Part shown: in pieces, positions 764 to 36,606 of the stretch
Position numbering within the stretch: position 1 is the stretch's first letter
Layout of the letters: each line of letters begins with the position of its first letter
IMG/VR virus record: IMGVR_UViG_3300030372_002131
Location: 1-36,606 of that record
DNA length: 36,606 nt
Reading direction: 5' to 3' (one strand)
DNA from: a virus
Taxonomy: Duplodnaviria > Caudoviricetes
Translations under genes and position numbers: made by a program
Notes under the pieces: generated by a model
What the model was told of the DNA's origin: nothing
Database searches by the model: none
What the model saw: the letters and a program-made list of their open reading frames with translations, nothing else

Positions 764-1102
764 TTATCTGTCGATTGGAGCGATGTCTACGTAAAGAGTT
801 TCGTTCTTTGCGGAAGTCCCCGTTCTGTTGCTAACAACTAATTGAAGCTCTGTTTGGGAAGTTGTAAAAGTACATCCTCCTGCTGATGTTAGAACCGCAT
901 CGGCTCCGAGGTCAACGTAAGCTCCTCCAACTTTATGTTGAAGAGTTAATGTAGTTCCCGAGCTAAAGGTTCCCGAGGCTAAAAAGGAATAAGTTCCACC
1001 CTTAATAGAGTTTATCTTTGGGCTACTGGTTCCTGAGTTGTACGTACCGTTTCCGTTAGTATCACCCGAACCATATAGGTTAATTGATGTTGTTGTTATC
1101 AT
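764..1102 (-). CDS. Small beta-rich putative virion protein
   Basis: 112 aa, Gly/Ser/Thr-rich, lies in the late operon. Confidence 0.6.
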   Translation of the reverse strand: MITTTSINLYGSGDTNGNGTYNSGTSSPKINSIKGGTYSFLASGTFSSGTTLTLQHKVGGAYVDLGADAVLTSAGGCTFTTSQTELQLVVSNRTGTSAKNETLYVDIAPIDR

Positions 1103-1126
1103 CTTTGTTTTTCTCTGCTGCTGTTA

Positions 1127-1339
1127 TTAATAAGTGTTTGTATTTGATCCAGACCCAGATTTAGCAGTAGATACCGAGGGTCTTCGAATTGTTAGAGAGC
1201 TGTTCCCCGTGCGTTTCTTACTTCTCCTGTTTTTGTCGGCTTTGTTTTCTACCACTTCTGCAACCTCACTAGGTTCTTGTATTGGTGGAACTATTGGTGG
1301 TGGCGGTGGAGCCTGTATTTTTGGGCGTGATAAGCACAT
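1127..1339 (-). CDS. Small virion protein, T7 gp6.7/gp7.3-like
   Basis: N-terminal MC, poly-Pro tract, basic 'KRTGNSSLTI' C-terminal segment; position upstream of the portal region. Confidence 0.65.
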   Translation of the reverse strand: MCLSRPKIQAPPPPPIVPPIQEPSEVAEVVENKADKNRRSKKRTGNSSLTIRRPSVSTAKSGSGSNTNTY

Positions 1340-1352
1340 GGTTTTCTCTTTG

Positions 1353-1544
1353 TTAATTATTGTTTGTTAAAATATTCTCGTTTTGTTCTGCGTTCTTTGC
1401 GCGTAAAAAATTAACGATATTGCGTTGACCGAAATAATAATCCATTGTTCGATATTCATCCTTTGGGCTAAACTCTTTAGGTGGAAAGATTTCATCGAGG
1501 GATCTTATCAGTTCATCGGAAACGAATGGGAAGGTATTATCCAT
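1353..1544 (-). CDS. Conserved podophage hypothetical protein (first late gene, gp6.5 position)
   Basis: 63 aa with the pattern 'P.VSDELI..LDEIFP...GQRNIVNFL' typical of this position in marine T7-like phages. Confidence 0.65.
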   Translation of the reverse strand: MDNTFPFVSDELIRSLDEIFPPKEFSPKDEYRTMDYYFGQRNIVNFLRAKNAEQNENILTNNN

Positions 1545-1574
1545 ATTTATCTCAGTTCTTTTTGATGTTGTTTA

Positions 1575-1590
1575 TTACTTATAAGTCAAT
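1575..1590 (-). promoter_or_regulatory. Candidate phage RNAP promoter or operator ATTGACTTATAAGTAA (copy 1)
   Basis: Exact 16-bp repeat of 16133-16148. Lies just downstream of a terminator and upstream of the late operon. Contains the palindrome ACTTATAAGT. Confidence 0.55.
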
Positions 1591-1605
1591 CTTTTTCTAA
1601 GGCAC

Positions 1606-1638
1606 AAAAAAAGCCCCCGAGAATTTCCCGAGAGCTTT
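1606..1638 (-). terminator. Intrinsic terminator
   Basis: Minus-strand RNA AAAGCUCUCGGGA-AAU-UCUCGGGGGCUUUUUUU: ~13-bp stem with G-U pairs, then a U-tract. Confidence 0.85.
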
Positions 1639-1666
1639 CTTTTTTGTTTGTTGTTTTAAGTGTTAT

Positions 1667-2041
1667 TTACCAATAGAAAGGAACTCCTGTTTTCTTTTGT
1701 ACGGATTTAGCTGCTCTAACCATAGCGCACCATTTACCCTTAGTGATGAACTCGCTATACCCAAGATCCTCGGGAGAGCATCTCATCATTATTGTACCGC
1801 CATCAATACAGTCTTCAAGTATCGAGAAGGTTAAGGGGTCACTTAGGTCAATCTCGTCCCCTGCTTTTAACCCGTACAGTTTTGTAATACCATGATCTAA
1901 TTCTTCTTTAGTCCATTGACAAGGCGGGCAATCATCGGGCGTATCTAGGTGGCACTCGATAATACAATCCTCGGGTCTATCTTTTATTAGTTCCCACTCC
2001 AAGGGAGTGAATGTTACTTTAGGTTTTTTGTTTGTACTCAT
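1667..2041 (-). CDS. Hypothetical acidic, Cys-rich protein (moron-like, probably leaderless)
   Basis: 124-aa ORF with an extended -10 element just upstream and a terminator downstream. Confidence 0.7.
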   Translation of the reverse strand: MSTNKKPKVTFTPLEWELIKDRPEDCIIECHLDTPDDCPPCQWTKEELDHGITKLYGLKAGDEIDLSDPLTFSILEDCIDGGTIMMRCSPEDLGYSEFITKGKWCAMVRAAKSVQKKTGVPFYW

Positions 2042-2047
2042 GGCTAC

Positions 2048-2056
2048 ACCATAGCA
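2048..2056 (-). promoter_or_regulatory. Extended -10 promoter TGcTATGGT
   Basis: TGn-TAnnnT ends 6 nt before the ATG at 2041. Confidence 0.45.
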
Positions 2057-2151
2057 TATTGAATTTTCAGCTTTATTAGGAAACAGGCTAAATAACTACC
2101 TAATGAAAAATCCGAGGCTACTATAATAGTATTAAAAAAAAAGTTAAAAAT

Positions 2152-2553
2152 TTATTTGACGGGGTTTTGTGTATTTACAATATCCCTTAACTCCTCGGGT
2201 AATTTACCTTCCTTTATCCACTCGTCCGTTTGATACAAACACATGGCATTCCAGATAACTGCGCTAAGGTGATCCTCTTCTTCACAACCTTCCATAAAAC
2301 CCCACAGGTGGCGGTAGATTGCATCGATATATCTGCTGAAACACTGACCCTTCTCCCAGTTGCGCTCGCCATACTTGTAACTGCCTAATTCGAACCTACG
2401 ACTGACGGCTCGCAAGCTACTGATGGGCAGTTGGTTAGGACAGCCTTTCCCTTCCATAGAATCTCTCACTGATCCTGTTTCAAATTCAGTACGCCCTCCG
2501 CTATCGGGTAACGGCTTTCTTTCTACTACTTCTGCTTTGTTGGTGGATTCCAT
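2152..2553 (-). CDS. dATP/dGTP diphosphohydrolase-domain protein (DUF5664-like)
   Basis: Motifs 'G..RD...GK', 'G..KYGERNWEKG', 'YIDAIYRHL', 'EDHLSAVIWNAMCL'. Confidence 0.8.
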   Translation of the reverse strand: MESTNKAEVVERKPLPDSGGRTEFETGSVRDSMEGKGCPNQLPISSLRAVSRRFELGSYKYGERNWEKGQCFSRYIDAIYRHLWGFMEGCEEEDHLSAVIWNAMCLYQTDEWIKEGKLPEELRDIVNTQNPVK

Positions 2554-3281
2554 AATCTTACTTCTCCTTCTTTTTCATTATATTCGTTTTTGTTTCTAAG
2601 GATGTAGGAAAGCCGAGCGTTCAAGAGAGCGTCTTCTTCTGTCTGTCCTTTCGATTCGTAAGCCTTCACAACTGTTTCCCAAGTCGCTCCGTTCTTATCT
2701 AAAAGTTTGTTAGCCGTTACACTTCCTATTCCTTTAGCTCCCGAGAAGCCATCGACTGTATCGCCCGACATTGCTTGGGCAAGGTGGTTATAGTCGGCTT
2801 CCTCTTGGGTCATAAAGCTTGTCTCCTTGCTCATAAAGTTGAACCACTCGCACTCGGGCAAGGTTGCGAAATCTTTATCGGCACTTACCACTACGTTATC
2901 TTTTGAATTAGAACAAAGTATCCCGATAACATCATCAGCTTCGAGGTTGTTCCATCGAATACCATTGTAATTCTCGGAAGCCCACTCGGTCATAGCCTTT
3001 AACCCGAGCGGTTTTCTCTTATCTTTTCTGTTCGCTTTGTACTCGGGAAATATATTATAACGAAAGTTTCGGGAGTCCGAGAACACGAGATGCAACTCTT
3101 CGCATTGTGTAGCATCTCGGACGAACTCGATCATGTCATCAATGATTACTTTCATGTCCGTCTCGGAACTATGAAGGGTCCATATATCATCTTCCCACTT
3201 GGTCTCTTGCTCGGAAGCAAAAGCAGCACGATACATTATCATATCCCCATCAACGTAACTTGTTCTTTTTTGTTTGCTCAT
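2526..3281 (-). CDS. 5'-3' exonuclease (T7 gp6-like)
   Basis: Motifs DGD, 'YKANRK', 'LEADDVIGI', 'SADKDF', 'GDTVDGFSGAKGIG'. Confidence 0.95.
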   Translation of the reverse strand: MSKQKRTSYVDGDMIMYRAAFASEQETKWEDDIWTLHSSETDMKVIIDDMIEFVRDATQCEELHLVFSDSRNFRYNIFPEYKANRKDKRKPLGLKAMTEWASENYNGIRWNNLEADDVIGILCSNSKDNVVVSADKDFATLPECEWFNFMSKETSFMTQEEADYNHLAQAMSGDTVDGFSGAKGIGSVTANKLLDKNGATWETVVKAYESKGQTEEDALLNARLSYILRNKNEYNEKEGEVRLWNPPTKQK

Positions 3282-3289
3282 AATTATTA

Positions 3290-5149
3290 TTAATGTGTTT
3301 CTGCCCAGTTGTTTCCTACTTTAAACTCACCATCCAAGGGACATTTAATACCGAGTGTCTTTCCTGCTGTACCGAGAGCAGTTACGAAAGCTCTTCCTAA
3401 ATCATTAGCGTGTTCCTTTTTGCACGAGAACTGTACCTCGTCATGGATGTTTGCATGAAGTTCATAAGGGTGCTTTGCGTGATCTTTAACGAACTCGATC
3501 AAGGCTTGCTTCATTACAATACTTGCTGAACTTTGCAGTAGAGAATTAAGAGCTTTATGTTTCGAGCGTATCTTTAAGATCCTCCCATCAATCGAAGTGA
3601 GGTAGCCTTGTGTATCAACCGCCTTATCAATATCGGAAGTTAACTTTTTAAATGAGGGCATCTTCTTAAGGAATGTTTGTCGTAATCTCTTTCCTTCCTT
3701 CATTCCTTTCCCGACAATTTCCCCGAGCAACTGGTTACCGCATCCATAAAGATAAGCATAGATCCAAGTCTTAGCTTCTGATCGGGTAATCCCGAGAGCA
3801 TCCGCATTAACTTGATGGATGTCACCCTCAAGAATCTCTCGAACATATTTACCTGAGTCATATTTAAATAGAACATGACCGAGCATTCTCAACTCGATGC
3901 CACTTGCATCAGCACCTACGAGAACTTTACCCTCGGGAGCTTTAAAAAGTCCTCGGGTTTCCTCACCGTAATCAGCGCGAACCGAGGGAACAGCGGATAC
4001 ATTTGGTTGTGAGTGAGTGCATCTCCCCGTAACTGTTCCTACTGTATTAACCGATCCGTGTATGCGACCCTCGGGAGTTACACAAGTAAGCCAAGCGTAC
4101 CTACCATCAACCAGTTGACCTAATCTTTTTTGTACTAGGAGATACTCGAGAAGCTTTAAACTTTCCTTGGTATTTATTTTCTTGAGAACAGCTTCATTTA
4201 TCTCAGGGCGTTTACCATCGTAGGCTTGAGGCTTCCAACCGTTAGCCATTAACCTCTCCGCTATTTGGTCACGGCTTCCCGCATTGAATGGTATTTCTCT
4301 TTTCTCATTACCCGTTTTTTCAGCGAGGTTTGCTATCGTTTGTTTAAACCCCGCCCGTTTCAGTTCTTCTTTAAGCTGTCCTTTTGTCTTAGCTGTGAAG
4401 TCGATACCCTCTACTTCAACTGTCCAACCTGCGGGTCTTTTCATCTCTACAATAGTTGGTGGAAAGACTTCCTGTAGTTCTTTATCAAGTTCAAGTTTTC
4501 TCACCATGAGATCCCGAGCTAGTTCCTCACCCTTCTTAACATTAAAAGGAAAACCGTTAAGTTCCTGTAAGCGAATAAGCTTTGCAAACTCATGCTCCAT
4601 CACGAGAGCTTTCGAGGAAGTATTAGCCTTTAACAAATGCTCATATAAAGAGAAAGTTACTCGGACATCCTGATTGCAATACTGTTGCATCTCGTTACTA
4701 AAGTCTTCCCAAGTCTCGGTTTCCCCGTGATCCCCTTTAAGATTACCAAGGCGTATCCCCCAAGCTTTAAGAGACTGAGAGCCTATTAATTTCTTAGGAA
4801 AATTCTCTCGTTTAAAATCACTATCGCCAATGTCAGGGAATAATATTTTAGCCATCAACATAGTGTCTATAACTTTATGAATAGATATCCCGAACAGTTT
4901 ATGAAGAGCGGGAACATCAAAACCGATACCGTTGTGGAAGACAACATACTCCGCTTGTTTAAGCATCGAGATACCCTCGGCTATATTTTGTTTATGTGTA
5001 TTAAACTCGTAAAGTTCTTTTGTCTCTGCATCCAAAATGGACATACAGTGCATGGTATCCAGACCTAATTGAGTTGACCACATGGTAAGCCCATTGTGTT
5101 TCCCAATCGCGTTAGTTTCTATGTCGGCTATAAGTAGTTTGTATTTCAT
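3290..5149 (-). CDS. DNA polymerase family A (T7 gp5-like)
   Basis: Exonuclease motifs 'ADIET', 'HNGIGFD', 'YCNQDV'; polymerase motifs 'DASGIELR', 'AKTWIYAYLYG', 'IHDEVQ'. Likely start is MKYKLL at 5149, since the track start at 5212 overlaps the helicase. Confidence 0.97.
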   Translation of the reverse strand: MKYKLLIADIETNAIGKHNGLTMWSTQLGLDTMHCMSILDAETKELYEFNTHKQNIAEGISMLKQAEYVVFHNGIGFDVPALHKLFGISIHKVIDTMLMAKILFPDIGDSDFKRENFPKKLIGSQSLKAWGIRLGNLKGDHGETETWEDFSNEMQQYCNQDVRVTFSLYEHLLKANTSSKALVMEHEFAKLIRLQELNGFPFNVKKGEELARDLMVRKLELDKELQEVFPPTIVEMKRPAGWTVEVEGIDFTAKTKGQLKEELKRAGFKQTIANLAEKTGNEKREIPFNAGSRDQIAERLMANGWKPQAYDGKRPEINEAVLKKINTKESLKLLEYLLVQKRLGQLVDGRYAWLTCVTPEGRIHGSVNTVGTVTGRCTHSQPNVSAVPSVRADYGEETRGLFKAPEGKVLVGADASGIELRMLGHVLFKYDSGKYVREILEGDIHQVNADALGITRSEAKTWIYAYLYGCGNQLLGEIVGKGMKEGKRLRQTFLKKMPSFKKLTSDIDKAVDTQGYLTSIDGRILKIRSKHKALNSLLQSSASIVMKQALIEFVKDHAKHPYELHANIHDEVQFSCKKEHANDLGRAFVTALGTAGKTLGIKCPLDGEFKVGNNWAETH

Positions 5150-5156
5150 AATTTTT

Positions 5157-10223: not shown

Positions 10224-10487
<264 letters not shown>

Positions 10488-11598
10488 ACTTGAAGATGGG
10501 TATTCTAGCGCGTTAAGACCACTAATAAAACTCTGCGGAGATAGCCGAGCATATCTAAGGGTTTGCGCTATATCTTTATGACCTAGCCACTCTTTTGTCA
10601 ATAGTAGGTTATTCGTCCTTTGTATCAGTCTAGACCCACAAGTGTGACGACAAACATAAAAAATAAAATCCTTATCTCCTTGTCTACCGAGGGCATCCCG
10701 AACTTTATCCCAAGCTCTCCTGATTCGATCTTTATTCCAATGCGCCCAAGGATAATCGTTAGCTTCTTTATGCTTATGGATAGCGCACATAGCTCTACGG
10801 GTTAATGGTATGGTTCTCTTCTCACCGTTCTTAGTTTTCTGTAGGTGAGCACAAACACCGAGGACGGGATCTTTCTTTATGTTTCTCCTATGAAGATATC
10901 GGGACTCTATCGGGCGCATCCCTGTATCGATTTGCCATACGAAAAAATCATAGAAGTAATCCATTCCGTTTTCCTCGAGGTAGGTTAATATCTCCACCTC
11001 TTCTTCCTCAGTGAAATAAACCATCCTCTCGTTGTTTACTTTAATACGAGGAAAAAAAGGTTTCTTGTCGAGAAGCTCCCTCTCAACCGCAAATGAAAAC
11101 GCCTTGCCCATTGTCGCTAGTTTAAGTTTAATAGTAGCGGGCGCATTTCCTTTATCCTTACAATGCAAAACAAACTTATCGAGCTTTGCTTTATTGATGC
11201 TTTTAATAAGGGTCTTAGCCCCAAAGAAAGCTTCTATTTGATGGCAATGGTTACGAGCCGTGTTCTCATTTGGTGTACCCTTCCACCCCTCGTTCGGTGG
11301 CGTACTAAGAACCCTATCGAATAGCTGTTGTAGCGTTAGAGGTTTAAAAGATTTCTCTTCTTTGTCGATTGAATCGCCTCGAGAGATTGCTAGTCTTAAA
11401 TTACTTTCCCAAGCTTGGGCTTCTTCCTTAGTTGGAAATTGTTTTCTGTAGCGTACCCCCTCGCTCATAAAATCAGCGAGGAATCTACTGCTTCCTGATT
11501 TACGGATTGACATAATGTTAGGGTCTTTCTATTGTTGTTGTTGTTAAGTTTTTTGTTAGGTGATGTATATAATAATTATGAATTAATAAAATTCAAAT

Positions 11599-11820: not shown

Positions 11821-12168
11821 TTATAGCTCGATGTCAAACATCAGTTGGTTTACATAAGGTAACGCTAAATGCTTTTGGCCTTCAGTAGTCATTAATGCGT
11901 TAATCTCCTTAACGACTACATGACAATGTGGTGCCTTTTTACCAAAGACTTTCCCCGCGGTTTCATAAGTGAATCCAAACTTTTTAACGAGGATAAACAT
12001 GGCAATCTTTCGCCAGTGTGATGCGTTATGTTTTGTACTGTCTTTTAAATAAGCCTCGTCAAATCCCGAATGATTGCTCATAGATTGAAGAAGGCGGTTA
12101 ATGATTAGATTTTGATTTATCAAAGGTCTTATCTGTTTTTTTGCTATTACTGTAGTTTTAGTTTCCAT
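11821..12168 (-). CDS. DnaA C-terminal (domain IV)-like HTH DNA-binding protein
   Basis: 'WRKIAMFILVKKFGFTYETAGKVFGKKAPHCHVVVKEI' parallels the DnaA pattern 'RQIAMYL.R....SL..IG..FG.RDH.TV'. Confidence 0.65.
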   Translation of the reverse strand: METKTTVIAKKQIRPLINQNLIINRLLQSMSNHSGFDEAYLKDSTKHNASHWRKIAMFILVKKFGFTYETAGKVFGKKAPHCHVVVKEINALMTTEGQKHLALPYVNQLMFDIEL

Positions 12169-12352: not shown

Positions 12353-12589
12353 TCAGGTTAATAAAGTGCTTAGTTCTTCCTCGGAAATTTCCCGAGGTTC
12401 ACCGATAATTTGGTTGAGTAAACTGTCATGCGTAAACTCATCAACATGCCCGAGCTTTGGCTTATCATTTTGAAATGGCTCGGGTGACAAGTCATAAGTA
12501 AAGGCGGTTAATAGTTCGCCCGAGTCACTGTATTGAACATCGAGAATTATTGGGAGCCGACAAGGGCGAATAAAACGGTGTAGGTTCAT
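12353..12589 (-). CDS. Hypothetical early protein
   Basis: 78-aa ORF with an AACCUAA leader. Confidence 0.65.
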   Translation of the reverse strand: MNLHRFIRPCRLPIILDVQYSDSGELLTAFTYDLSPEPFQNDKPKLGHVDEFTHDSLLNQIIGEPREISEEELSTLLT

Positions 12590-12987: not shown

Positions 12988-13022
12988 AAAAAAGCCCCTC
13001 GAGGATAAACCCGAGAGGCTTT
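12988..13022 (-). terminator. Intrinsic terminator in the early region
   Basis: 13-bp stem AAAGCCUCUCGGG / CUCGAGGGGCUUU followed by a U-run. Confidence 0.8.
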
Positions 13023-13448: not shown

Positions 13449-13504
13449 TCAGCCTATTAGCTGAATCCCTAACCCCCGAGGAATGCCCGAGGATTACGGA
13501 TTCA
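13449..13504 (-). promoter_or_regulatory. Long intergenic hairpin, RNase III-site-like (copy A)
   Basis: ~19-bp imperfect stem UGAAUCCGUAAUCCUCGGG / CUCGGGGGUUAGGGAUUCA with no adjacent U-tract; paralogous to 14475-14529. Confidence 0.6.
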
Positions 13505-13509
13505 ATTAA

Positions 13510-13935
13510 TTAAACTTGTTCCGCTTCTTCTAACTCGTAGAACCTCGCGGTCTCCTCTAATGCGTACCAAGCGAGCGCATTTAATACTTGCTTATCCATC
13601 CCGTCATTTAGCGTGGCAAGATCAGGCTTGTCGTAAATTATTGAAGCAATTTCAAGGGTGCTTATTGTATTTGTTGTTCCAAAACAATTAAAGTTTTGAA
13701 CAAATATTAACGGATCTTCACCCATTCCGCTTGCATCTTCCTTTATGGATTCCAGTATTTCTTCCATATTATCACGCGCAAACTTGCAAGTGTCTTTACA
13801 ATATATAAATCCGCTGAAACCTCCATCGGCTCCGTGGTTGCGTACATCTTTTAATGTGTCGTGTAGTTCTTTGTCGTTCCAAGCTTTAAAGCCTAATTGA
13901 TTGCGAACGTTTTTTTCTAATTTGTTAGATATCAT
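13510..13935 (-). CDS. Conserved phage early protein, acidic, function unknown
   Basis: 'DVRNHGADGGFSGFIY..DT..F' and 'NALAWYALEE' form a recurring phage early-gene family signature. Confidence 0.75.
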   Translation of the reverse strand: MISNKLEKNVRNQLGFKAWNDKELHDTLKDVRNHGADGGFSGFIYCKDTCKFARDNMEEILESIKEDASGMGEDPLIFVQNFNCFGTTNTISTLEIASIIYDKPDLATLNDGMDKQVLNALAWYALEETARFYELEEAEQV

Positions 13936-14450: not shown

Positions 14451-14474
14451 TTTTTTTTTATAGGTTGTTTTTAG

Positions 14475-14529
14475 TCAGTCTTAATTAACTGAATACAGTC
14501 CCTCGAGGATTGCCCGAGGAACTGAATCA
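14475..14529 (-). promoter_or_regulatory. Long intergenic hairpin, RNase III-site-like (copy B)
   Basis: Stem UGAUUCAGUUCCUCGGG / CUCGAGGGACUGUAUUCA. Confidence 0.6.
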
Positions 14530-14536
14530 ATCAACA

Positions 14537-15433
14537 TTATCCGAGGATGTAATTAGATGCTTTTTGAGCGGCACTGGCGGCCTGCACTGCTAGCTTGCAA
14601 TCGCCTTTTAAGACCTTAATCCAAGACTGAAGATAAGCGGCCGAATTTTCCATTATCTCGCTGTTATCAATTCGCGCTTCATTGCATAAAAACGCGGCAC
14701 CCATCTCAGCTACTAGTTCCTCTTTACTGTAAACATCATCACCAAAACTTGAATTGGTAGCAACGCCTTTACGATCCAAGCGGGACTTATGACCAGTTGA
14801 ATGTATTAACTCATGGAAGAAAACCGCGTAGTAATTTTCCGCATCTTTAAAGCTGTTTATTTCAGGCATCCTTACTTCATCACGACTAGGAGAGTAGCAA
14901 GGGTTTCCGCGAGCTGATAGCTTGTTATTATCGATGCTTATTGAAGGCTTATTTGGCATATTATCAATAATACTCTGCGCGGCCTCTATTGGCTCAATCT
15001 CCTCATCATTAGGCGATGTAATAGGCTCAGCATCCTCATCAATACCCTCTATTTGATCGAGGTTAAAAACATAAGAATGTTTGAAAAATGGAATCTTCTC
15101 AACAGCTTTTTTCTCGTCCAGTGTTTTCTTACCGTTCGCGTCCTTCATAAGAAAATTGAAGTAAGTCACAGGCGTTCCTTTTTCACCCTTGTTAACCTTA
15201 CCACCATTAGCTTTAGCCTGATTGAAAGTCATCCACTTATTTGAGCTATAACCTTTATAAAATTGCATTCCTTCAAGTAGGAAGTAGTTAATGCCTTTAT
15301 AGGTGTTTTTACTTACAAAGTTTTGAGGATCAGTGATACGGTTAACCTTGAAGTTACGCTTCCAAGGCGCCACGCCATTTTCTAGTAGTTCGATCAGTCT
15401 ATCAGTGACTAATTCGTATGTTTTAGTATTCAT
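14537..15433 (-). CDS. ardC: ArdC-family antirestriction / ssDNA-binding protein with zincin-like domain
   Basis: 'LENGVAPW', 'Y.GIN...L', 'WMTFNQA...GG.V.KGEKG', 'VFNLDQ', 'HELIHSTGH..RL.R', 'YSKEELVAEMGAAFL', 'AAYLQSW'. Confidence 0.93.
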   Translation of the reverse strand: MNTKTYELVTDRLIELLENGVAPWKRNFKVNRITDPQNFVSKNTYKGINYFLLEGMQFYKGYSSNKWMTFNQAKANGGKVNKGEKGTPVTYFNFLMKDANGKKTLDEKKAVEKIPFFKHSYVFNLDQIEGIDEDAEPITSPNDEEIEPIEAAQSIIDNMPNKPSISIDNNKLSARGNPCYSPSRDEVRMPEINSFKDAENYYAVFFHELIHSTGHKSRLDRKGVATNSSFGDDVYSKEELVAEMGAAFLCNEARIDNSEIMENSAAYLQSWIKVLKGDCKLAVQAASAAQKASNYILG

Positions 15434-16143
15434 TTTTTTTTAGGTTGTTTTTTAGGTTGTTTTTACTCGCTTTAATTCGTTGCGATAGGAACCTATAAGG
15501 CCTACAAAAGATATAGCAAATGTTTTTTTAATGTTTTTTTAACATAGGGAAAAAACACCGATAAATACACAAACACTTGTATGTACAAATGCAATACATT
15601 AACAGCTTGGAACCTTGGAATAATCCGAGGCATTAAAGAGCTATTATTTGATGCCACTAGACTTGATGTCTGTTGCCTATTTGAGGGAGTGCCTAGGCTT
15701 ATATAAAAAGGAGAGGGGGTGTTGACAAATAACAGACAATCAACCTCAAAAAATCCTCATACCCGACTATCCCTATGGGGGAAGTAGAGATTGCTAAATA
15801 CAACGTGAACCCCTTCAGATTTTCTCACCAAAACCGAGGGTCAACAGGGATTGGTGTGGTATTACTTCTTCAATTATACCGCTAAGATACTCGGGAGTTC
15901 CCCGAAAGCTCCCTTCAAAACGCCACATTTAACATGTAACCTAGTCTTCCCCTAGGAGTATCTTTAAATTACTTTAACTTTACTGCTCACTACTATAAGT
16001 TCTCCCGATAACTCTCGGGAAATCTACCTGTATTAACATTATTAATTTAGACTTAAATCCCAATTATCCCTCTATTTCATAGACCCTCTAATTAACACTA
16101 AGTAAGAGAGAGCCCCCCTACCCCCCATTCGTTTACTTATAAG
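15434..16143. other. Non-coding junction between last late and first early gene; probable terminal-repeat/packaging region
   Basis: No ORF of 60 aa or more over ~700 bp; position matches T7-like genome ends; contains short palindromes and G/C runs. Confidence 0.65.
15490..15519 (-). promoter_or_regulatory. Candidate early host-RNAP promoter
   Basis: TTGCTA, 18-nt spacer, TAGGTT, with an A/T-rich UP-like tract, upstream of ardC. Confidence 0.45.
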
Positions 16144-17161: not shown

Positions 17162-17240
17162 ATATGTCCTTAGAAAGTGTTTAAATGTTTAAATTGATAT
17201 GAGGTCACCCGAGCAATCTCCCGAGCAATCCTAAAGGATT

Positions 17241-18923
17241 CTAGAGCCAATTAGGACTATTCCTGTGGTGGTTCTTATTGCCATAATAGGTATTTGCTAG
17301 TTTTCTTAGTTCTTCATCTAGCTGTTCTTCCTTACGGCTCTTTATCTTTTTCTCTGCGTCCTGTGCCATCTGTTCCGTCCAGTAAGCTACTGCGATTGCT
17401 AGGGCATCCAACCTGTCATCGTGGGTTATCGCTCCTCTATCCCGAGTAAGTCTCGAGAGTTGATAGATAAGCTGATAGCGCAGTTGGGATTCTAGCGGGT
17501 AGTTCTGGGCTGAATTAAAATCTTCCCGAATAACATCGGGTGATATAACGAGTTTGTGTTGACTCATTACGGGTTCGAGGGTGTCTATAATTCTCTTCTC
17601 CTTTTGTATGCTGTGCCGAACTTCCTCGACAGAGCATGGGTGTACCTTATTAAGAAAGGGCTTGAAGAGTTCCGAGAACATCCCGTCACCAAAGTTACTC
17701 TCGACAATGATGTAGTTAACTTTATGGGTCTTTGCTTTGAGGGCTAACTTCTTTAAAACTTCATCACCATAACCTCCCTGCATTCCTCCTGCATCGGGTA
17801 CGTAAAGGAAACCGTTAAGCATCTTTACTACTGCCCACGAGGTTTCGTCTCGTCCTCTTCCCGAGGGGTCAATAGACATTACCGATCCTGAGAACTCCAC
17901 CATGTCTCCTACTTGTTTCATCGGGCGGTAGAAGCGATCTCCCGTGAAGCCTACGTTGGGAACATCACCACTCCAAACAAGCTCGGGACTCTGTGCCCAC
18001 ACAACCTTCTCGGGAGCTACCTCGTTATCTATGTCCATGACTACGAGGTCATTAAGTTTAAGAGGGAACCTATCAACATCGGACAACCGAGAGTCCAACA
18101 TGAACTGCATGGCGAACCCTGCCTTACCATAACTGATCTCTCGTTCTGCTAGGTCTATCTCACTGAACCTTGTAGGCTCGGTAGATTTCCCTTTTTTATC
18201 TTCCGCTACGCAAAGAGGACTAACACTTCCATAGTACGTCTTTTCGTTCTTTTTCGGTGTTATGTATTTGCACGGCCATACGCAAGCTGTATAATCACGT
18301 TCGATTAGTTTGTTATACAGTGAATCCTCGCATTGGGGTGTGCCTAGAAAAACAATTTTGCTTTCCTTATCGGGTTTTAGAATTGATTCAAATTCCTTAA
18401 CCTGCTCGGCAAGTTTGTCTCTCATCCCTTGCGTAGCGGAGTTATTGGGAACCTCCACATCATCCGCAACAATGATATCAGCCCTGCTTCCCGTCAACTG
18501 GGAGGTGATGCCTAGCGACTTGACGCTCGGGGCGTGTGCTGCGGGGGCAGGGCCGACATCAAAAGATATCTTAGAAAACCTTTGTTTATCGGTAGGTATC
18601 AAGTGAGCCAAGATAGGCATCTCGTGAATTAACCGAAGTGTGAAGGTACTAAAGTCATCCGCTCGGGTTTTACTAGCAGAGCAGACTAGTATATTCTTTG
18701 AGGGGTCTATAAGTAATTGGTGAACCACATAAGCGGAACAAATCCAAGACTTACCAACTCCTCGGAATCCTTGAATGACTGCTCTTCTTGGGCCGTTCTG
18801 CATCCACTCGGCAATCTCATATTGTATTGGTGTGGGGTCGGGTAGATTGAGATGCTTCCAGACGAGGTATAAGAAATTCCTAAAGTCTTTAAGTTCTTCG
18901 GGAACAGTCTGTTTAGAAGGCAT
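17241..18923 (-). CDS. terL: Terminase large subunit (gp19-like)
   Basis: 'FRGVGKSW', 'TGSRADIIVADDVE', 'LGTPQ', 'IDPSGRGRDE', 'HDDRLDALA'. Confidence 0.98.
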   Translation of the reverse strand: MPSKQTVPEELKDFRNFLYLVWKHLNLPDPTPIQYEIAEWMQNGPRRAVIQGFRGVGKSWICSAYVVHQLLIDPSKNILVCSASKTRADDFSTFTLRLIHEMPILAHLIPTDKQRFSKISFDVGPAPAAHAPSVKSLGITSQLTGSRADIIVADDVEVPNNSATQGMRDKLAEQVKEFESILKPDKESKIVFLGTPQCEDSLYNKLIERDYTACVWPCKYITPKKNEKTYYGSVSPLCVAEDKKGKSTEPTRFSEIDLAEREISYGKAGFAMQFMLDSRLSDVDRFPLKLNDLVVMDIDNEVAPEKVVWAQSPELVWSGDVPNVGFTGDRFYRPMKQVGDMVEFSGSVMSIDPSGRGRDETSWAVVKMLNGFLYVPDAGGMQGGYGDEVLKKLALKAKTHKVNYIIVESNFGDGMFSELFKPFLNKVHPCSVEEVRHSIQKEKRIIDTLEPVMSQHKLVISPDVIREDFNSAQNYPLESQLRYQLIYQLSRLTRDRGAITHDDRLDALAIAVAYWTEQMAQDAEKKIKSRKEEQLDEELRKLANTYYGNKNHHRNSPNWL

Positions 18924-31337: not shown

Positions 31338-31936
31338 TAGTAAGGATTATAGTTTCTGTTGATGCCTATCCTGCGAGCGACATCGAAATTATCAAATATA
31401 GTTCTATCGGAATTGTTGTTGTCCGAGTTCTCTAGGTTTGCTTTTGCTGCAAACTCATCGCGTATAATAAGAGCTTCAAGTTCCCTCGATCCTACAAGGC
31501 GTGATTGAAGGGATCGGGCAGCCCTAAGTGTTATGTATCTCCGTGCTTGCTCGGGTAAATTATCCCAAACGAGGTATTTCACGACAGTTACCTCGATAGC
31601 ATCCGTGAATACATAGGTGTTGTTTTTTCTATCAAATAAGGAACGCCCTCTTTGTACGAGGTCAACATCTTCGGAACCATCGTGGTCAACTTGAAGGATG
31701 TCTTCGTCCAGTGTTATTTTTCCATCGGCTGCACTACCTATTAAAGATATTTCTGTTTCGGTGTTAAAGTGCCATCCCTCGCTTTGAACTTCTCTTGATG
31801 TTTCTTCGAGGATTGTAACTGCGTTTGCTGCCGAGACAGGAAGCTCCGAGGTATCGCTAATGCTGTTTACAGGGGCTTCCCCGATGTACCCTAGCATAAC
31901 ATTACAAGCTTCTAGTTGTGTTGTAAGTGTAGCCAT
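31337..31936 (-). CDS. Tail tubular protein A (gp11-like)
   Basis: 'LEACN.ML..IGEAPV', 'VQSEGWHFNTE', 'LPEQARRYI..RAAR'. Confidence 0.95.
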   Translation of the reverse strand: MATLTTQLEACNVMLGYIGEAPVNSISDTSELPVSAANAVTILEETSREVQSEGWHFNTETEISLIGSAADGKITLDEDILQVDHDGSEDVDLVQRGRSLFDRKNNTYVFTDAIEVTVVKYLVWDNLPEQARRYITLRAARSLQSRLVGSRELEALIIRDEFAAKANLENSDNNNSDRTIFDNFDVARRIGINRNYNPY

Positions 31937-31961
31937 AAAAATTCTATAAAAATGTTTAATG

Positions 31962-32005
31962 AAAAAAGAAAAAGGGCGAGGGAACCTTTATTGATTCCCC
32001 CACCC
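31962..32005 (-). terminator. Terminator after the major capsid gene (T-phi-like)
   Basis: GGGUGGGGGAAUC-AAUAAA-GGUUCCCUCGCCC followed by UUUUUCUUUUUU. Confidence 0.88.
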
Positions 32006-32044
32006 AATCTCTCGTGATGTTTCGTTGTTTGCTAACTTTTTAAA

Positions 32045-33109
32045 TTAAGCAACAACCTTAACGCATGCACCTTGTCTGAGCCAGTTGTGACCCATTGCAT
32101 ACTTAGCGACTAGGATAGTACCTTGTCTTTGGATATTGTAATCTGACTCTGTAGCGATATCGAGCAACTTCACAGTTCCAACGGCCTGTTTGTGGCCACC
32201 TACAAAACGAAGACCACTAAGGTCAGCGTTGTAACCATTACCTGCGCTTGAACCTGCTGCTTCATCGAACGGATTGTTCTTAGCGGCATCGTCACCATCA
32301 TCGGCTCCTGCGTATGATCCTGCTGTAGAATTTACAGCGATATCTCTAACGTGGTTTGACTTGAAGATTTTGATCCCCGCAACCATCGGTACGTTACCTT
32401 CAGCGATAGAACCTACACCACCAAAGTCTTTGTTAAGAGCGATGTTGCCTGTAGTATCACTAATAAGTAAGTAGTAAAGCTCTGGCGGTAGAATAGCAAA
32501 ACGATCCCCATCATCAGGAATATCATTTTCATCTAACTTCTGAGCCATTTCTATAATAGCGTCAACTACTTTAGCACCTGTGGCATTAGTATATGCCCCA
32601 CTGCTTACAGCAATATTCGAAGATATTGAAATACCCGCAGGTTGATCTGTAGCTGCTGCTGCTTGTGCGCCCGCAACTAATGTCTTCATTACCGCAAGGT
32701 CAAATCTCTTAGCGAGTGCCTTACCGAGTTCTTTTGAGTAAATACTTCTTAGATCGAAGTGATTACGCAAACTGTCAATGTCAGCGATGAAGGTTGAGCT
32801 AACAAGAAGATCATCAACTGTGATGACTCTCTCGCTGTGCTTAATCTTACTTAGGTGATCCGCACCGTCTAGGATGTCTTCACCAGCTGTTAAGTAAGAT
32901 GCGCTTGCAATTCCTGTTACTGGAAAAGATGCACTCTTACCCTCGCTTATTGTTCTTACTGTGTGAAGGTCACGCATGACGTTCGCTTCTTCGAATGCAG
33001 TTAGTACTTCCCCAGAGAATACTTGGAGAAACAAAGCATCTTGATCCGCTGCTTGTGTACTGTTATTTGGGTTACCTGCTCTTGGTATATTTGCGCCTAT
33101 ATTAGACAT
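32045..33109 (-). CDS. Major capsid protein (gp10-like)
   Basis: 'ALFLQVFSGEVLTAF', 'RTISEGKSASFP', 'ITVDDLL', 'YSKELGKALA', 'KYAMGH..LR'. Confidence 0.97.
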   Translation of the reverse strand: MSNIGANIPRAGNPNNSTQAADQDALFLQVFSGEVLTAFEEANVMRDLHTVRTISEGKSASFPVTGIASASYLTAGEDILDGADHLSKIKHSERVITVDDLLVSSTFIADIDSLRNHFDLRSIYSKELGKALAKRFDLAVMKTLVAGAQAAAATDQPAGISISSNIAVSSGAYTNATGAKVVDAIIEMAQKLDENDIPDDGDRFAILPPELYYLLISDTTGNIALNKDFGGVGSIAEGNVPMVAGIKIFKSNHVRDIAVNSTAGSYAGADDGDDAAKNNPFDEAAGSSAGNGYNADLSGLRFVGGHKQAVGTVKLLDIATESDYNIQRQGTILVAKYAMGHNWLRQGACVKVVA

Positions 33110-33213
33110 AATATTATTTACCTTTCTTTATTTATTTTGTGTTTGTTGTTTTATTTCTTCTAAACAACGCACTCTAATAAACTAAAAAGACCTATTGATT
33201 TGTTCTTGTTGTT

Positions 33214-33237
33214 GATTGTCCCTCGCAAGGGGTCGCA
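33214..33237 (-). promoter_or_regulatory. Hairpin motif in the capsid leader (GCGAC-CCCU-UGCG-AGGG-ACAAUC)
   Basis: GC-rich UNCG-type hairpin within an otherwise A-rich 5' UTR. Confidence 0.5.
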
Positions 33238-33294
33238 CTCGTAACAACCTTTCGGTTAATTAGTGTTCTTTTTGTGTGTTGAAATCTTTATATA

Positions 33295-33486
33295 TTACTT
33301 ATGCTCGAGTTCATTCACGTACTTCAGGATCTCTCCTATTGTTTCCTTTTCTTGTACGGTGAACGAATGGACTCTCAGTTTCGAGAGAAAATGGGGAATC
33401 TTGCTCTGTGGTGTCCTCGTCACGCAGCCACTCATCAATGAGATCAATGTTGCGATCACGATTACGCTTAATAGCTTCCCTTTCAT
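33295..33486 (-). CDS. Putative o-spanin-like lipoprotein (overlapping frame)
   Basis: Signal peptide plus lipobox-like Cys: MKGKLLSVIVIATLISLMSG|C; overlaps 33311-33562 in another frame. Confidence 0.6.
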   Translation of the reverse strand: MKGKLLSVIVIATLISLMSGCVTRTPQSKIPHFLSKLRVHSFTVQEKETIGEILKYVNELEHK

Positions 33487-33562
33487 AAGCTTCTACAACT
33501 TTAAAAAAGTACTCGCAAATTTTCGGAAAGTTTATCAGAAAAGTTACAAGTAGTTTTATCAT
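33311..33562 (-). CDS. Putative i-spanin-like membrane protein
   Basis: Hydrophobic N-terminus followed by a charged helical segment; the lipoprotein ORF overlaps its 3' part. Confidence 0.5.
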   Translation of the reverse strand: MIKLLVTFLINFPKICEYFFKVVEAYEREAIKRNRDRNIDLIDEWLRDEDTTEQDSPFSLETESPFVHRTRKGNNRRDPEVRE

Positions 33563-33574
33563 TGTGTTTTGTGG

Positions 33575-33757
33575 TTAGCTTTTTGGTTTTGCTTTGCCAA
33601 TGTTTAAAGCAAGCCAGTTAATTGTTTTTAATAGAATACCTGTTATCTTGTTGTCCGTCTTGTTAGGTGTCAAAGCACTAACGAGGGACGCTAAAGTAAC
33701 TGTTGCGGTTGCTATCGTAATTAGCTGTTCCTTATTTTCGATTATATAATTAATCAT
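33575..33757 (-). CDS. Small membrane protein, holin-like
   Basis: 'IATATVTLASLVSALTP.KTDNK....L...INWLALN.GKA' matches a small phage holin-like pattern. Confidence 0.65.
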   Translation of the reverse strand: MINYIIENKEQLITIATATVTLASLVSALTPNKTDNKITGILLKTINWLALNIGKAKPKS

Positions 33758-33776
33758 GTTTTCCTTTTTGTTGTTG

Positions 33777-34616
33777 TTATAAATTAGATATGGAAATTCT
33801 TTGTTCTACCTCTCTACGAAACGAGGGATCTTGCTGATACCTCTTGTCTTTCATAGCTGTAGTGACTTGTGCCATCGAACCAAAAGGCTGAATAGTAGAT
33901 CCTGAAGTGGCTCCCTTTGCAATATTCACGGACGATCCCCCGTCTTCGCTCATATATCTCGCGTATAAGCCCTTAACTGCCATCTTTTTCGCCTCTTGTG
34001 ACCCATAATCAGCTATTTCATTAAAGGCTTCCACTTCATCTTTCGCTAGAGAGTCACTCGCCCACTCGATCATGGACGCATAATTATCTTTTCCTCCAAC
34101 CGTATTTTGTATCTCTGTTTCCCGAGCAGTATTAGAAGCTCTTTTGCCTTCCATGTAATCATCGGCAATCTCTCGGCTGATGCCCGCCTTTTCTAAATCT
34201 TCGTAGTTCTTATCGGTTAACTCTCCGCTTTCATAAAAAGCTTCCGAGGCTTGTTGGATAGCATCCGAGACAAGCTCAGTTGTTGGTTGATTACTATCAT
34301 CCGCTTTCTCCTCGGTCGATTCCTCGGGAGTATCCGTGTTTTGTTCTCCCTGTTTCTTTTCAAGATTTTCGTATGCTTTTGCAAGATCCTCTGGTGATTT
34401 AAATTTCTCGGGCAACCATTCAGGTCTTTCCTCGATAACCTCTTCTTCTTCTTCTTCTGTAGTAGTAGTAGATTCCTCGGGAGTTTCCTCGGGAGCTTTC
34501 TCTTCTTCAGTAGTGTTTTTATTTTCTCGGGCTTTCTCTTGCATTTCAAGTTCTTCCTCGAGAGTTGGGTTTACTAGTTCATCAGCCGTTGGCTCATTTA
34601 CTTCTACACGTTGCAT
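33777..34616 (-). CDS. Capsid scaffolding protein (gp9-like)
   Basis: Acidic; 'RPEWLPEKF.SPEDLAKAY..LEKK', 'VGG..NY..M.EWA', 'AM.D.RY..DP.FR..VE'. Confidence 0.93.
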   Translation of the reverse strand: MQRVEVNEPTADELVNPTLEEELEMQEKARENKNTTEEEKAPEETPEESTTTTEEEEEEVIEERPEWLPEKFKSPEDLAKAYENLEKKQGEQNTDTPEESTEEKADDSNQPTTELVSDAIQQASEAFYESGELTDKNYEDLEKAGISREIADDYMEGKRASNTARETEIQNTVGGKDNYASMIEWASDSLAKDEVEAFNEIADYGSQEAKKMAVKGLYARYMSEDGGSSVNIAKGATSGSTIQPFGSMAQVTTAMKDKRYQQDPSFRREVEQRISISNL

Positions 34617-34647
34617 ATTTTATATTACCTCCAATATTAGTTTATGT

Positions 34648-36207
34648 TTATTCAATAGGTTCCTCGGGTTGTTCCGAAGCCATTGTTTGATCGGTAGCAC
34701 TCTTGATAGCCGAGGGGCCGAGCTTCTCTGCCATTTGTTGCATCTGAGCTTGTTGTTGCTCTTGTAAAATATCTTCTTGTGTTTTGATAAGACCCGCTGT
34801 TTTTATTCCGAGGGAAGTTGCTCGTCTCTTAAAGTATTCGTCTACGTTTACAAATGTCCCGATAGCTTGTGGGCCTACAACTTGCGCTGCTCCTGCGAGG
34901 AAGGCATCAAGTTTCTGTAAATCATTACCTCTTCCTAAAGCTTCAAGACCAGTGATTACCACGGGCTTCACGAGATCACTCGGGAGCTTCGGCATCTTCT
35001 TAGTCTTTTGCATAACATCCATTATACGTTTTACGAGAGGTGTCTGTAGTTCATTAGAAAGTAAGGAGTATAAACCACCGAGTGAACTTTCGAGTTCCTG
35101 AGATACCATTCGTATTTCCTCGGCTGTTACCCTCTCAGCACTTCTTATAGAATTACTGGTAAGTAGAAAGCTTTGCCCGAGCCTGTCCTTGATTGAGTTG
35201 ATTGTCTCGGCTGCTACTCGGAAGTCATTAAATTTATTTAACTGCAAAGTTGAAACATCATTAGCTGAACCGCTGACAATAGCACCATTCGGGCTTTTGC
35301 TGAGATCCCTAGCCTTCGTTGTTCCATTTGGGGAAACGAGGAAGAGTACCTTGGCTGCTGCTGCTGATCCCTCAACGATTGCTTGAGTAAGTGACTCGAG
35401 TGATTGTAGATCCCCGAGCATATCCTCGATGAATGATCTACCATAACTTTCACCATCCACCCGAGAAAACCTAAGAGGTATGTACGGGTTTTTATCGAGG
35501 GGCAATAAGCCTCCTGTCTTTGGTAAAAGTGTTCCATTGATATCTTGCTTAACCAACCACTTATCCCCGTGTCGGCATATAGCAGTAAATAGGTTTACGT
35601 TTTCAATGTCAGTACTCTTAGATAAATCTTTTGGTGTCCCGATAGCTTCTTTGATTTCCTCGTCAAGTGCTGAGTAACTAAGAGTCTCTTTCGTGGCTAT
35701 GTATAAGACGTTACCCATCGGGTCTCTCTCGATAACAAAGCGGTCAAGACGGAACACTCGCATACCCATCTTTTCATCCGTGAAGATAAGAGCATTACCA
35801 GTTACTATGAGATTTTTTAGAGCTTCATGCAAAACGATGCGATATCTTTCGCGAGCAATTTCATCCATTATTGTGTCCTCAACCTTTTGTAAAGCCGAGT
35901 CAATTTCCGAGATAACTTTCTCCTCGGCTCCCTCCTGTTGCAGTTTGTTTTTATCTACTTGTAGTCTGAAGAAGGGAGCGTTCGGTGGGAGAAGGGCAAG
36001 CAACAATTTAGATGCTAGGTTATTTGTACCTTTCGATCCTATACTTTGAAATGGTGTATTGAGACGAGAGCTTGTTCCGAAGCCTTCATCAGGTAATATG
36101 TAAGGGAGTGTTAAACGCGCTGCTTGTCTACCTCGTTCTAAATAACTGTGTCTATTACCTTCAAGCTTACTATAAAGCTGCTCGGCTGTTTCTTTTGAGT
36201 AGTTCAT
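34648..36207 (-). CDS. Portal / head-tail connector (gp8-like)
   Basis: 'QSIGSKGTNNLASKL...LLPPN.PFFRL', 'GESYGRS', 'ERVTAEEIR', 'TGLEALGRG.DL'. Confidence 0.97.
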   Translation of the reverse strand: MNYSKETAEQLYSKLEGNRHSYLERGRQAARLTLPYILPDEGFGTSSRLNTPFQSIGSKGTNNLASKLLLALLPPNAPFFRLQVDKNKLQQEGAEEKVISEIDSALQKVEDTIMDEIARERYRIVLHEALKNLIVTGNALIFTDEKMGMRVFRLDRFVIERDPMGNVLYIATKETLSYSALDEEIKEAIGTPKDLSKSTDIENVNLFTAICRHGDKWLVKQDINGTLLPKTGGLLPLDKNPYIPLRFSRVDGESYGRSFIEDMLGDLQSLESLTQAIVEGSAAAAKVLFLVSPNGTTKARDLSKSPNGAIVSGSANDVSTLQLNKFNDFRVAAETINSIKDRLGQSFLLTSNSIRSAERVTAEEIRMVSQELESSLGGLYSLLSNELQTPLVKRIMDVMQKTKKMPKLPSDLVKPVVITGLEALGRGNDLQKLDAFLAGAAQVVGPQAIGTFVNVDEYFKRRATSLGIKTAGLIKTQEDILQEQQQAQMQQMAEKLGPSAIKSATDQTMASEQPEEPIE

Positions 36208-36216
36208 ATAAATTTT

Positions 36217-36606
36217 TTAATCGGGTTGAGTCCAAGCTTCGTTGACATCAGGAGTAGTTGGGTCGTCTGCTATGAATTTTCCATCGGCATCCCTAGCTCT
36301 CTGAGGTTCTGCTGGTTCTTCTAGTAAAGGTTCGGGAGGAAATACCCAGTCACTCGGAAGGGATTCTAAAATCTCGTCTTCATCTGTGAGGATGTCTTTA
36401 TCAACTGCAACAACTGTTGAAGAGATTACTTCAAATGTTTCTGGATCTGTTTCAGTTTCCGTTGTTGTTGGTAACAAGATTGCTGCTCTCGGATCTTCTT
36501 CTTTGCTTTCAACTACAGTAGAAAACCAGTATCTACTTCCAGTACCATTCTGGCTGTAACTAAGTCCACGCATAGCTCCTGCCTGTTCACTGCGAATATG
36601 TGCTTG
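36217..36606 (-). CDS. Hypothetical virion-associated protein (5' end probably outside window)
   Basis: Frame stays open to the window edge (QAHIRSEQAGA-MRGLSY...). C-terminal 'RARDADGKFIADDPTTPDVNEAW' is a motif recurrent in marine phage proteins. Confidence 0.7.
   Translation of the reverse strand, partial: QAHIRSEQAGAMRGLSYSQNGTGSRYWFSTVVESKEEDPRAAILLPTTTETETDPETFEVISSTVVAVDKDILTDEDEILESLPSDWVFPPEPLLEEPAEPQRARDADGKFIADDPTTPDVNEAWTQPD

Follow-up and report, generated by a model that had tools for sequence, protein, structure and literature searches.

A graded (C)CCGAG word iterated across a marine T7-like phage genome whose sister lineages purge CYCGRG

Why does a phage genome repeat one five-letter word about 190 times, within its genes and between them? 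The question is raised by the window, by which we mean the whole 36,606-bp stretch analyzed here (IMG/VR record IMGVR_UViG_3300030372_002131; G000), a near-complete marine T7-like phage genome with an integrase and all of its genes on the minus strand. A first-pass annotation had described CCGAG and its complement CTCGG as extremely enriched on both strands, in genes and between them, and the counts bore this out: CCGAG occurred 105 times and CTCGG 85 times, 190 sites in total against 35 expected from base composition (5.4x). The longer CCCGAG/CTCGGG was found 90 times (7.0 expected), CTCGAG 22 times (4.2x), and TCCCGAGG/CCTCGGGA 16 times. The 20 sites that the annotation had counted between positions 34201 and 35470 were exact, but this stretch is among the densest, and the genome-wide excess, although real, was overstated by it.

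900..36400: dispersed sites, 190 CCGAG/CTCGG (90 of them as CCCGAG/CTCGGG) and 22 CTCGAG.

Codon use did not account for the excess. A shuffle of synonymous codons within genes gave 44.8 CCGAG sites against 175 observed (z about 21), which rejects codon or dipeptide bias as the cause; the genic sites were split into 83 sense and 92 antisense, and all three frames were used. An equal rise of all CG-containing words, which the annotation had named as the outcome that would undercut its claim, was not seen: CG stood at 0.9x, CCGA at 2.0x, TCGA at 1.0x, and ACGT at 0.4x. Since the phage purges many words, we also applied an avoidance-constrained null, a codon shuffle that additionally forbids the words purged by the phage. 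The excess persisted under this strictest null (CCGAG, 169 versus 48 ± 6; CCCGAG, 76 versus 16 ± 3), and a synonymous sink of restriction avoidance was thus rejected for the window. The null was judged to be discriminating because it abolished the GCSGC excess of pelagiphage HTVC019P (90 versus 90) and of G494, another T7-like phage (104 versus 112). In the pelagiphages HTVC031P, HTVC019P, and HTVC105P (L306, L310, and L311), GCSGC seemed to be 5- to 6-fold enriched, with GCWGC at 0; GCSGC in HTVC019P and G494 was rejected as parallel hoarding, being fully a synonymous sink of avoidance.

Intergenic DNA held 15 sites versus 1.4 expected. Within genes, 175 of the 799 places at which the protein permits CCGAG were filled, versus 1.2 to 2.5% in four genomes of related phages that avoid the word, and the amino acids at motif codons were no less conserved than elsewhere; permitted places numbered 24.6 per kb in the window versus 23.5 to 23.8 in the avoiders. 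The genes poor in sites were those for the capsid, the tail fiber, and ArdC, together with small early genes.

32045..33109, minus strand: major capsid gene, almost without the word (1 of 18 permitted places filled).
14537..15433, minus strand: ArdC-family anti-restriction protein (1 of 18 permitted places filled).

The annotation had further reported that CCGG and CCCGGG appeared to be missing. Both counts were 0, but the absence of CCGG is not singular: CCNGG and CGNCG also stood at 0, GGWCC at 1, and CCAGC at 2, about thirty 6-mers were purged, and many 6-bp palindromes were at 0. The lack of CCGG is ordinary avoidance of restriction sites, with many other words purged alongside it, and CCCGGG is missing because CCGG and CCNGG are purged. 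From the CCCGGG gap the annotation had argued that the bias is not simply one toward CYCGRG, an AvaI/AquI-type site. The bias is indeed asymmetric and graded, but the gap itself is explained by the purging, and a tie to CYCGRG is visible in that positions 2 and 5 of CCCGAG toggle as in CYCGRG and sister phages purge exactly CYCGRG. The window encodes no methyltransferase, as the annotation had stated.

The sign of the bias changes among the relatives of this phage. Searches with the terminase, RNA polymerase, DNA polymerase, and portal proteins, drawing on the best 80 of 445 terminase and the best 80 of 483 portal matches, yielded 143 loci from related phages, each 5 kb or longer, with redundancy kept. 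In this comparison with sister phages, which the annotation had proposed, 82 of the 143 loci lacked any CYCGRG, while 25 carried CCGAG at 2x or more. The hoarders formed one clade nested among avoiders on the RNA polymerase tree (FastTree support, 100) and fell into two groups among avoiders on a quick terminase tree. Avoiders at 86 to 91% terminase identity had 0 to 2 CYCGRG in pools of 55 to 120 kb. The public contig G405 is a chimera, with an avoider in its first ~18 kb and a hoarder in the rest, and the bias follows the halves. The favored word varied within the hoarder clade, being CCCGAG in the window, G404, L131, and L134, CTCGAG in L100/L108 (36 versus 7 under the avoidance-constrained null), and CCGAG plus CCGG in L004 to L006, L136, and L137.

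Other T7-like phages also exceeded the constrained null with words of their own: CCWGG in G493 (624 versus 252), CGWCG in G494 (172 versus 105), and GGSCC in MedDCM-OCT-S46-C10 (L308, AP013545; 58 versus 19). The related phage G493 (L243, L262-L263) hoards more strongly than the window: CCWGG was at 7.8x, 306 of 629 permitted places were filled, the permitted places were themselves raised (19 versus 15 to 17 per kb), CCSGG, CYCGRG, GGNCC, and CCCG were absent, and no methylase was seen. Ayaqvirus S45C18 had no CCGAG excess (75/64, observed/expected) but iterated TAACA (258/102), and it carries a short C5 methylase gene. A C5 DNA methylase gene also lies between the primase and polymerase genes of the avoiders G406 (32585-33484) and G407. 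A phage methylase was rejected as the cause of hoarding, as relatives of the G406 enzyme were found only in G407 and L034 and all three are avoiders, and ArdC is not required because the hoarder G404 lacks it. In the published literature, mostly outside subscription journals, we found no description of a phage that iterates CCCGAG/CYCGRG or of a sign flip between sisters; the available parts of PMC8919816 hold no mention of the CCCGAG word.

The word itself is graded. In the window and the matching half of G405, enrichment rose from CGAG (2.1x) through CCGAG (3.7x) and CCCGAG (5.7x) to TCCCGAG (8.2x), giving a consensus of about (T)CCCGAG(G/C), and near-matches were raised as well (ACGAG, 2.0x; CGAGG, 3.1x). 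CCGAG without the first C remained at about 3x, whereas CCCGA without the last G fell to about 1.5x, and in this analysis the top word CCCGAG/CTCGGG was asymmetric and graded, with palindromic CTCGAG at only 2x. Judged from the sequence, this ladder with its raised near-matches resembles the landscape of a binding site, in contrast to the CCWGG of G493, which is sharp. The sites were clumped, with a density of about 5 per kb and gaps of up to 1.5 kb. Gaps of 8 to 13 bp were overrepresented (16 versus 6.5 expected; P = 0.001), 13 of these 16 being direct repeats, whereas all gaps up to 30 bp together numbered 33 versus 26.8 (P = 0.09). Of the close doublets named in the annotation, 7845/7854 and 17209/17221 are real; that at 34446-34464 does not exist, the nearest being 34476/34488, and 16004-16020 holds a single site (16014) plus a near-match. 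In five intergenic doublets the two copies build an RNA hairpin stem, since one CUCGGG can pair with another through G-U.

12991..13022, minus strand: terminator-like intergenic hairpin with a CTCGGG/CTCGAG pair as stem.
13451..13510, minus strand: intergenic hairpin with a stem of two CTCGGG pairing through G-U (-28.8 kcal/mol).
14471..14535, minus strand: intergenic hairpin with a CTCGGG/CTCGAG stem (-26.1 kcal/mol).
17191..17245, minus strand: hairpin with the 17209/17221 doublet.
1601..1650, minus strand: terminator-like hairpin with the 1617/1628 doublet.

Avoiders have early-region hairpins without the word, and the counterpart of 14471-14535 shares a similar 3' flank.

The annotation had left two origins for the word, selection or a repair or methylation ratchet in the host, and the way in which the word changes favored the former. 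In comparisons of the window with G404, G405, and L131, silent third positions inside CCGAG showed 67 changes versus 153 expected, whereas ten control 4-mers gave ratios of 0.95 to 1.22. Over five relatives, C-to-T and G-to-A changes were at 74/153 (observed/expected), transversions at C or G at 36/80, and transversions at A or T at 4/19. Against L134, L007, and L008, positions 1, 3, 4, and 6 of CCCGAG were conserved (0.11 to 0.39) and positions 2 and 5 toggled between C and T and between A and G, which is what ties the word to CYCGRG; this degeneracy was confined to positions 2 and 5 in the deep comparisons, but CCGAG and CGAG outside CYCGRG were raised 2- to 4-fold. The excess and the slowing of both transitions and transversions together support selection, and the pattern of change looks selection-like at the sequence level.

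A classical very-short-patch (Vsr) ratchet, which would convert T:G to C:G at a 5-methylcytosine site, is by contrast largely refuted and very improbable. At fourfold sites, transversion neighbors were as depleted as deamination neighbors (58/119 versus 52/110; P = 0.92), under a model T-to-C ratchet A and G would stay at 1.0x, whereas about 0.5x was observed, and the precursors CTGAG and CCAAG stood at 0.8x and 0.9x. Position-3 G-to-A neighbors were somewhat lower than G-to-T neighbors (14/40 versus 19/27, window and G405 pooled), as such a ratchet would have it, and one Vsr gene adjoins a C5 methylase gene in a candidate-host genome; however, no Vsr was found in the four candidate-host genomes searched (a fifth, G161, is not a candidate host).

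The candidate hosts were identified through the attachment (att) site, which lies between the integrase and RNA polymerase genes.

10410..11513, minus strand: tyrosine integrase.
10337..10378, minus strand: putative attP core of 42 bases, equal to the 5' half of tRNA-Leu(TAG), with variants in relatives.

From the integrase we infer that the phage is temperate. A metagenome scan with the att core returned 36 loci, 7 from related phages and 29 cellular; CGAG was at 0.1 to 0.7x in these 29 host-like loci, and the 12 with genes listed look alphaproteobacterial. The core was exact in 23 of 81 genomes of the order of genome G139, which appears SAR116-like from gene content and size, and 6 of 401 alphaproteobacterial genomes carried it with at most one mismatch. 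In that order, CCCGAG was at or below 1.0x in 31 sampled stretches, whole-genome counts gave no confirmable excess, and pooled high-GC genomes held 107 CCGAG versus 203 under codon shuffle. The excess that the annotation would have looked for in the host was not seen in these candidates, where the word is depleted, and a ratchet shared with the host is unsupported because of that depletion, the host assignment being provisional. The same high-GC members (L157-L176 and L271-L281) had CCWGG at 200 and GCWGC at 560 versus 698 and 1138 under codon shuffle, also depleted GGSCC, TCGA, CGAG, and CYCGRG, and in a minority carried a C5 methylase.

Among close relatives the att core varies, with paired changes in the D-stem of the tRNA, and this variation suggests frequent switches of host or tRNA. 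None of the relatives' variants occurred among 121 genomes of the order of G139, 48 of which matched a loose pattern. A cluster of avoider-type integrases includes a member in an Opitutia metagenome-assembled genome. An Altibacter metagenome-assembled genome holding L081 was rejected as a host clue, as its tRNA differs and it is probably a misbin, and G033 and its family, not established as Pelagibacter, gave rise to no host inference. A full-tRNA scan of viral contigs returned 0 matches, the att query against phages and plasmids found generic tRNA-Leu matches only, and the rows examined of PMC3861242 assign no host to S45-C18.

A candidate reader of the word is encoded by the phage itself, and the helix-turn-helix (HTH) protein that the annotation had mentioned in passing as DnaA-like became the best lead, through a predicted fold match and a clade-specific helix.

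11821..12168, minus strand: stand-alone DnaA domain-IV-like HTH protein of 115 aa, candidate binder, just upstream of the integrase.
12353..12589, minus strand: 78-aa open reading frame (ORF) with the top site density of all genes (5 sites, 21 per kb), 200 to 400 bp upstream of the HTH gene.

The 115-aa protein was PF08299-like in the ESM Atlas (0.94), matched the NCBIfam DnaA model (E = 4e-6), and gave a profile match to DnaA structures. Its structure model (predicted local distance difference test score, 85) found as best Foldseek matches the DnaA-DNA complexes 3pvp and 1j1v; the 3pvp match had E = 3e-3, above the tool's 0.001 line, with template modeling scores of 0.69/0.81 and a probability of 1.00, and the top ten rows were all DnaA. 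By this model the protein has the DnaA domain-IV fold and HTH signature, with a predicted recognition helix that starts at residue 79 and aligns with the DnaA signature. Among 20 distinct homologs, the 8 from the hoarder clade share one type of recognition helix and the 12 from avoiders all differ, and the chimeric G405 has one helix of each type, in the matching halves. Hoarders at RNA polymerase identities of 0.70 to 0.84 keep 5 to 7 of 8 helix residues (rest of the protein, 0.51 to 0.72), while avoider pairs at 0.74 to 0.79 keep 3 or 4 (rest, 0.52 to 0.59). In L100, whose preferred word is CTCGAG, a His in the helix is changed to Gln, a single case. In pelagiphages and a roseophage, the place of this gene just before the integrase is occupied by a MarR-type regulator. 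Three sets sharing another helix type (the G408, G412, L090, and L105 group) carried ACTCA/TGAGT at about 2x on both strands, Ayaqvirus S45C18 (G413) carried TAACA/TGTTA at 2.4 to 2.8x on both strands, and the remaining avoider groups had weak iterated words or none; ACTCA and TAACA are a hint that the pairing of word and helix is general.

The reading that we favor, with a probability of roughly 40%, is that the ~190 copies of the (C)CCGAG word are binding sites through which the DnaA domain-IV-like protein coats or marks the phage genome. The protein would read the graded word, each added site would help a little, and the slow silent change would reflect selection rather than a type-blind repair bias. 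Coating through dispersed sites would mark the DNA as self, and because the word is rare in candidate host genomes, the coat would set phage DNA apart from that of the host. The coat might hold the prophage silent, or it might protect the phage DNA against nucleases, among them an enzyme cutting at CYCGRG, which the sister phages would escape by purging. This purpose, self-marking, is the least secure part of the explanation. A broader version, in which the clade evolved a genome-wide self code with protein and genome locked together, and other lineages perhaps use ACTCA or TAACA, is possible but doubtful.

Several observations weigh against binding by the phage protein. CYCGRG, which the best members of the word match, is a classical methylase site, purged to zero by the sisters, and a phage protein reading such a site needs a second argument. 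L005, L133, and L134 share the helix, yet have CCGAG at 2.1x, 0.7x (in the 4-kb L133), and 4.8x, with L005 and L133 favoring CCGG, while G493 hoards CCWGG (624 versus 252) with no detectable homolog of the protein. Because the hoarders form one clade, the match of helix type and word is a single event and may reflect shared ancestry. There is no site between the HTH gene and the integrase, and 190 sites would titrate a lysogeny regulator. RNA hairpins or repeated dipeptides account for many of the close doublets. At the A position, transitions were not slowed over the five relatives (13/11), and the pairwise substitution counts, being symmetric and sharing branches, are not independent and serve as a guide rather than a test. 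Finally, the host depletion was measured in candidate hosts and may not apply to the actual host.

Host methylation offers another reason for the same sites, which we regard as rather unlikely. Here the word would be the site of a host methylase, similar to CYCGRG but with relaxed flanks, and methylated phage DNA would switch off a DISARM-like (restriction-modification-associated defense island system) defense, whereas sisters facing an ordinary CYCGRG enzyme would purge it. According to the cited papers, DISARM methylases mark CCWGG or MTCGAK, with methylation as an off switch (10.1101/2021.12.28.474362), DrmAB binds DNA without sequence preference and has its ATPase lowered by 5-methylcytosine (PMC9142583), and a marine phage clade, with no link found to this family, is methylated at CGCG, GAGCTC, and CYCGRG (PMC9516812, section 11). 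The absence of CYCGRG from 82 of the 143 loci, the free positions 2 and 5 beside conserved 1, 3, 4, and 6, and the hoarding of textbook methylase words beyond the constrained null in G493, MedDCM-OCT-S46-C10, G494, and L100/L108 all fit, and L100/L108 raise both CTCGAG and ATCGAG (compare MTCGAK); however, ATCGAT, which is likewise MTCGAK, is only at 8/5 there. The bias is also asymmetric (about 3x versus about 1.5x), unlike that of a palindromic methylase, and clumped, with gaps of up to 1.5 kb, and unmethylated motifs increase DISARM attack (10.1101/2021.12.28.474362). In the candidate hosts, the DrmB-type domain PF09369 was found in only 1 of 61 genomes, and the C5 methylases (17 of 61) adjoin ordinary restriction enzymes where a neighbor could be named (NgoPII-, EcoO109I-, and NgoFVII-type), and in one case a Vsr gene. 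One candidate-host locus, L333 (G441:C1:193850-197152), has a frame of 1790 aa in which a DUF1998/MZB domain is present and which may be a helicase of the DISARM or Druantia kind. The DISARM logic may well fit the sharp palindromes of G493 and S46-C10; it fits the graded, asymmetric word of the window less well.

The word might also bring no benefit, if methyl-directed repair or gene conversion in phage heteroduplexes favors alleles that complete a methylatable site, whatever the substitution, as in Elhai's model for highly iterated palindromes (HIP; PMC4390886, section 3.4), here transferred to a recombining phage. This bias predicts slowing of all substitution types, a higher relative excess between genes (15 versus 1.4), and low occupancy in the capsid gene or in genes that the nearest relative lacks (ArdC, 1 of 18), but it saturates near one evenly spaced site per kb, against 5 per kb in clumps here, the candidate host genomes are not enriched, and no such repair system was identified; we consider it unlikely. 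Still less probable is a host protein that reads the sites, whether they act as decoys for a restriction enzyme or methylase or are used by a translocating enzyme that pulls the genome in. EcoKI pulls in T7 DNA. A small benefit per site and the lack of strand bias suit such a protein, and candidate-host methylase loci adjoin NgoFVII-type and MORC-like ATPase genes. However, the early-region genes, which would enter first, are the poorest in sites, sisters of the same layout manage with none, and no CYCGRG enzyme was found (PF09194 in 0 of 81 genomes, a search in which the controls gave nothing either).

The phage that carries the word has a T7-like gene set: RNA polymerase, single-stranded DNA-binding protein, endonuclease I, primase-helicase, polymerase A, exonuclease, portal, scaffold, capsid, tail and internal virion proteins, terminase, and amidase, to which the integrase and the ArdC-family protein are added. 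The longest contig with identical proteins is 38,701 bp, and comparison with G404 suggests that the ~2 kb lacking from the window is tail-protein sequence. Its DNA is present in marine metagenome runs; contigs from two other runs match at 99% or more, which ruled out an assembly artifact, and separate public contigs show the CCGAG bias as well. Among named genomes, the closest is Ayaqvirus S45C18 (uncultured MedDCM-OCT-S45-C18, Autographiviridae), with 74% terminase and 37% RNA polymerase identity and an identical gene order, including the integrase. tRNA and Rfam scans of the window gave no match, and promoter-like sites in the early region were fewer than the shuffle mean. A gene at 2152-2553 belongs to the dATP/dGTP diphosphohydrolase family (PF18909) and stands without other base-modification genes. 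Several very basic ORFs of 55 to 90 aa lie between the exonuclease and portal regions of G404, G405, G406, and G408, and the window lacks them.

Among known systems, HIP1 and the alternative HIPs of cyanobacteria (PMC4390886) likewise iterate a GC-rich word in and between genes, overlapping a methylase-type site. The window shares their genome-wide excess beyond codon use; it has neither a fixed, perfect palindrome nor a methyltransferase in the same genome. Unlike HIP1, its word is in the phage and not in candidate hosts, is graded and asymmetric at about 5 per kb, has no cognate methylase in the phage genome, and is purged by sister lineages. Restriction-site avoidance (PMC6286503) covers the zero counts of CCGG, CCNGG, CGNCG, and palindromes in the window and of CYCGRG in its sisters, but unlike the slight overrepresentation of some sites described there, the window inverts one to a several-fold excess within a purging family. 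The DISARM off switch (PMC9142583; 10.1101/2021.12.28.474362) offers a reason why methylatable sites could help a phage, and its words CCWGG and MTCGAK resemble those hoarded by G493 and L100/L108; however, no DISARM is tied to the host of this phage, and CCCGAG is not among the DISARM words found. DnaA domain IV (PDB 3pvp and 1j1v) has the same predicted fold, an HTH with a basic loop, and the phage protein is likewise expected to read a short asymmetric site, but it stands alone without the AAA+ part and has different recognition residues, and, unlike DnaA boxes, the proposed word is a different one, dispersed rather than clustered at an origin. The word of the window is a variant of iterated-word systems, with a bias opposite in sign to that of its sisters. 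DNA uptake sequences and Chi are also dispersed words read by proteins, the former with a graded cloud of mismatches. The word of the window differs from them in having no 9- to 10-bp core and no Chi-like strand skew (83 sense, 92 antisense) and in not being shared with candidate hosts.

These comparisons provide a control for the field, in that the apparent GCSGC hoarding of cultured pelagiphages is a by-product of GCWGC avoidance, whereas the CCGAG of the window is not. Loss of short restriction-type words is the expectation for phages, and here one clade keeps, at several-fold excess, a word removed by its sisters. Self-marking by dispersed sites, if true, would be an unusual means of labeling viral DNA as self, and a self code of this kind, if true, would use a coated word that is absent from the host and purged by sisters as a restriction target. 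Either way the biology would be new: a protein with which a virus marks its genome, or a defense that makes methylatable sites an asset.

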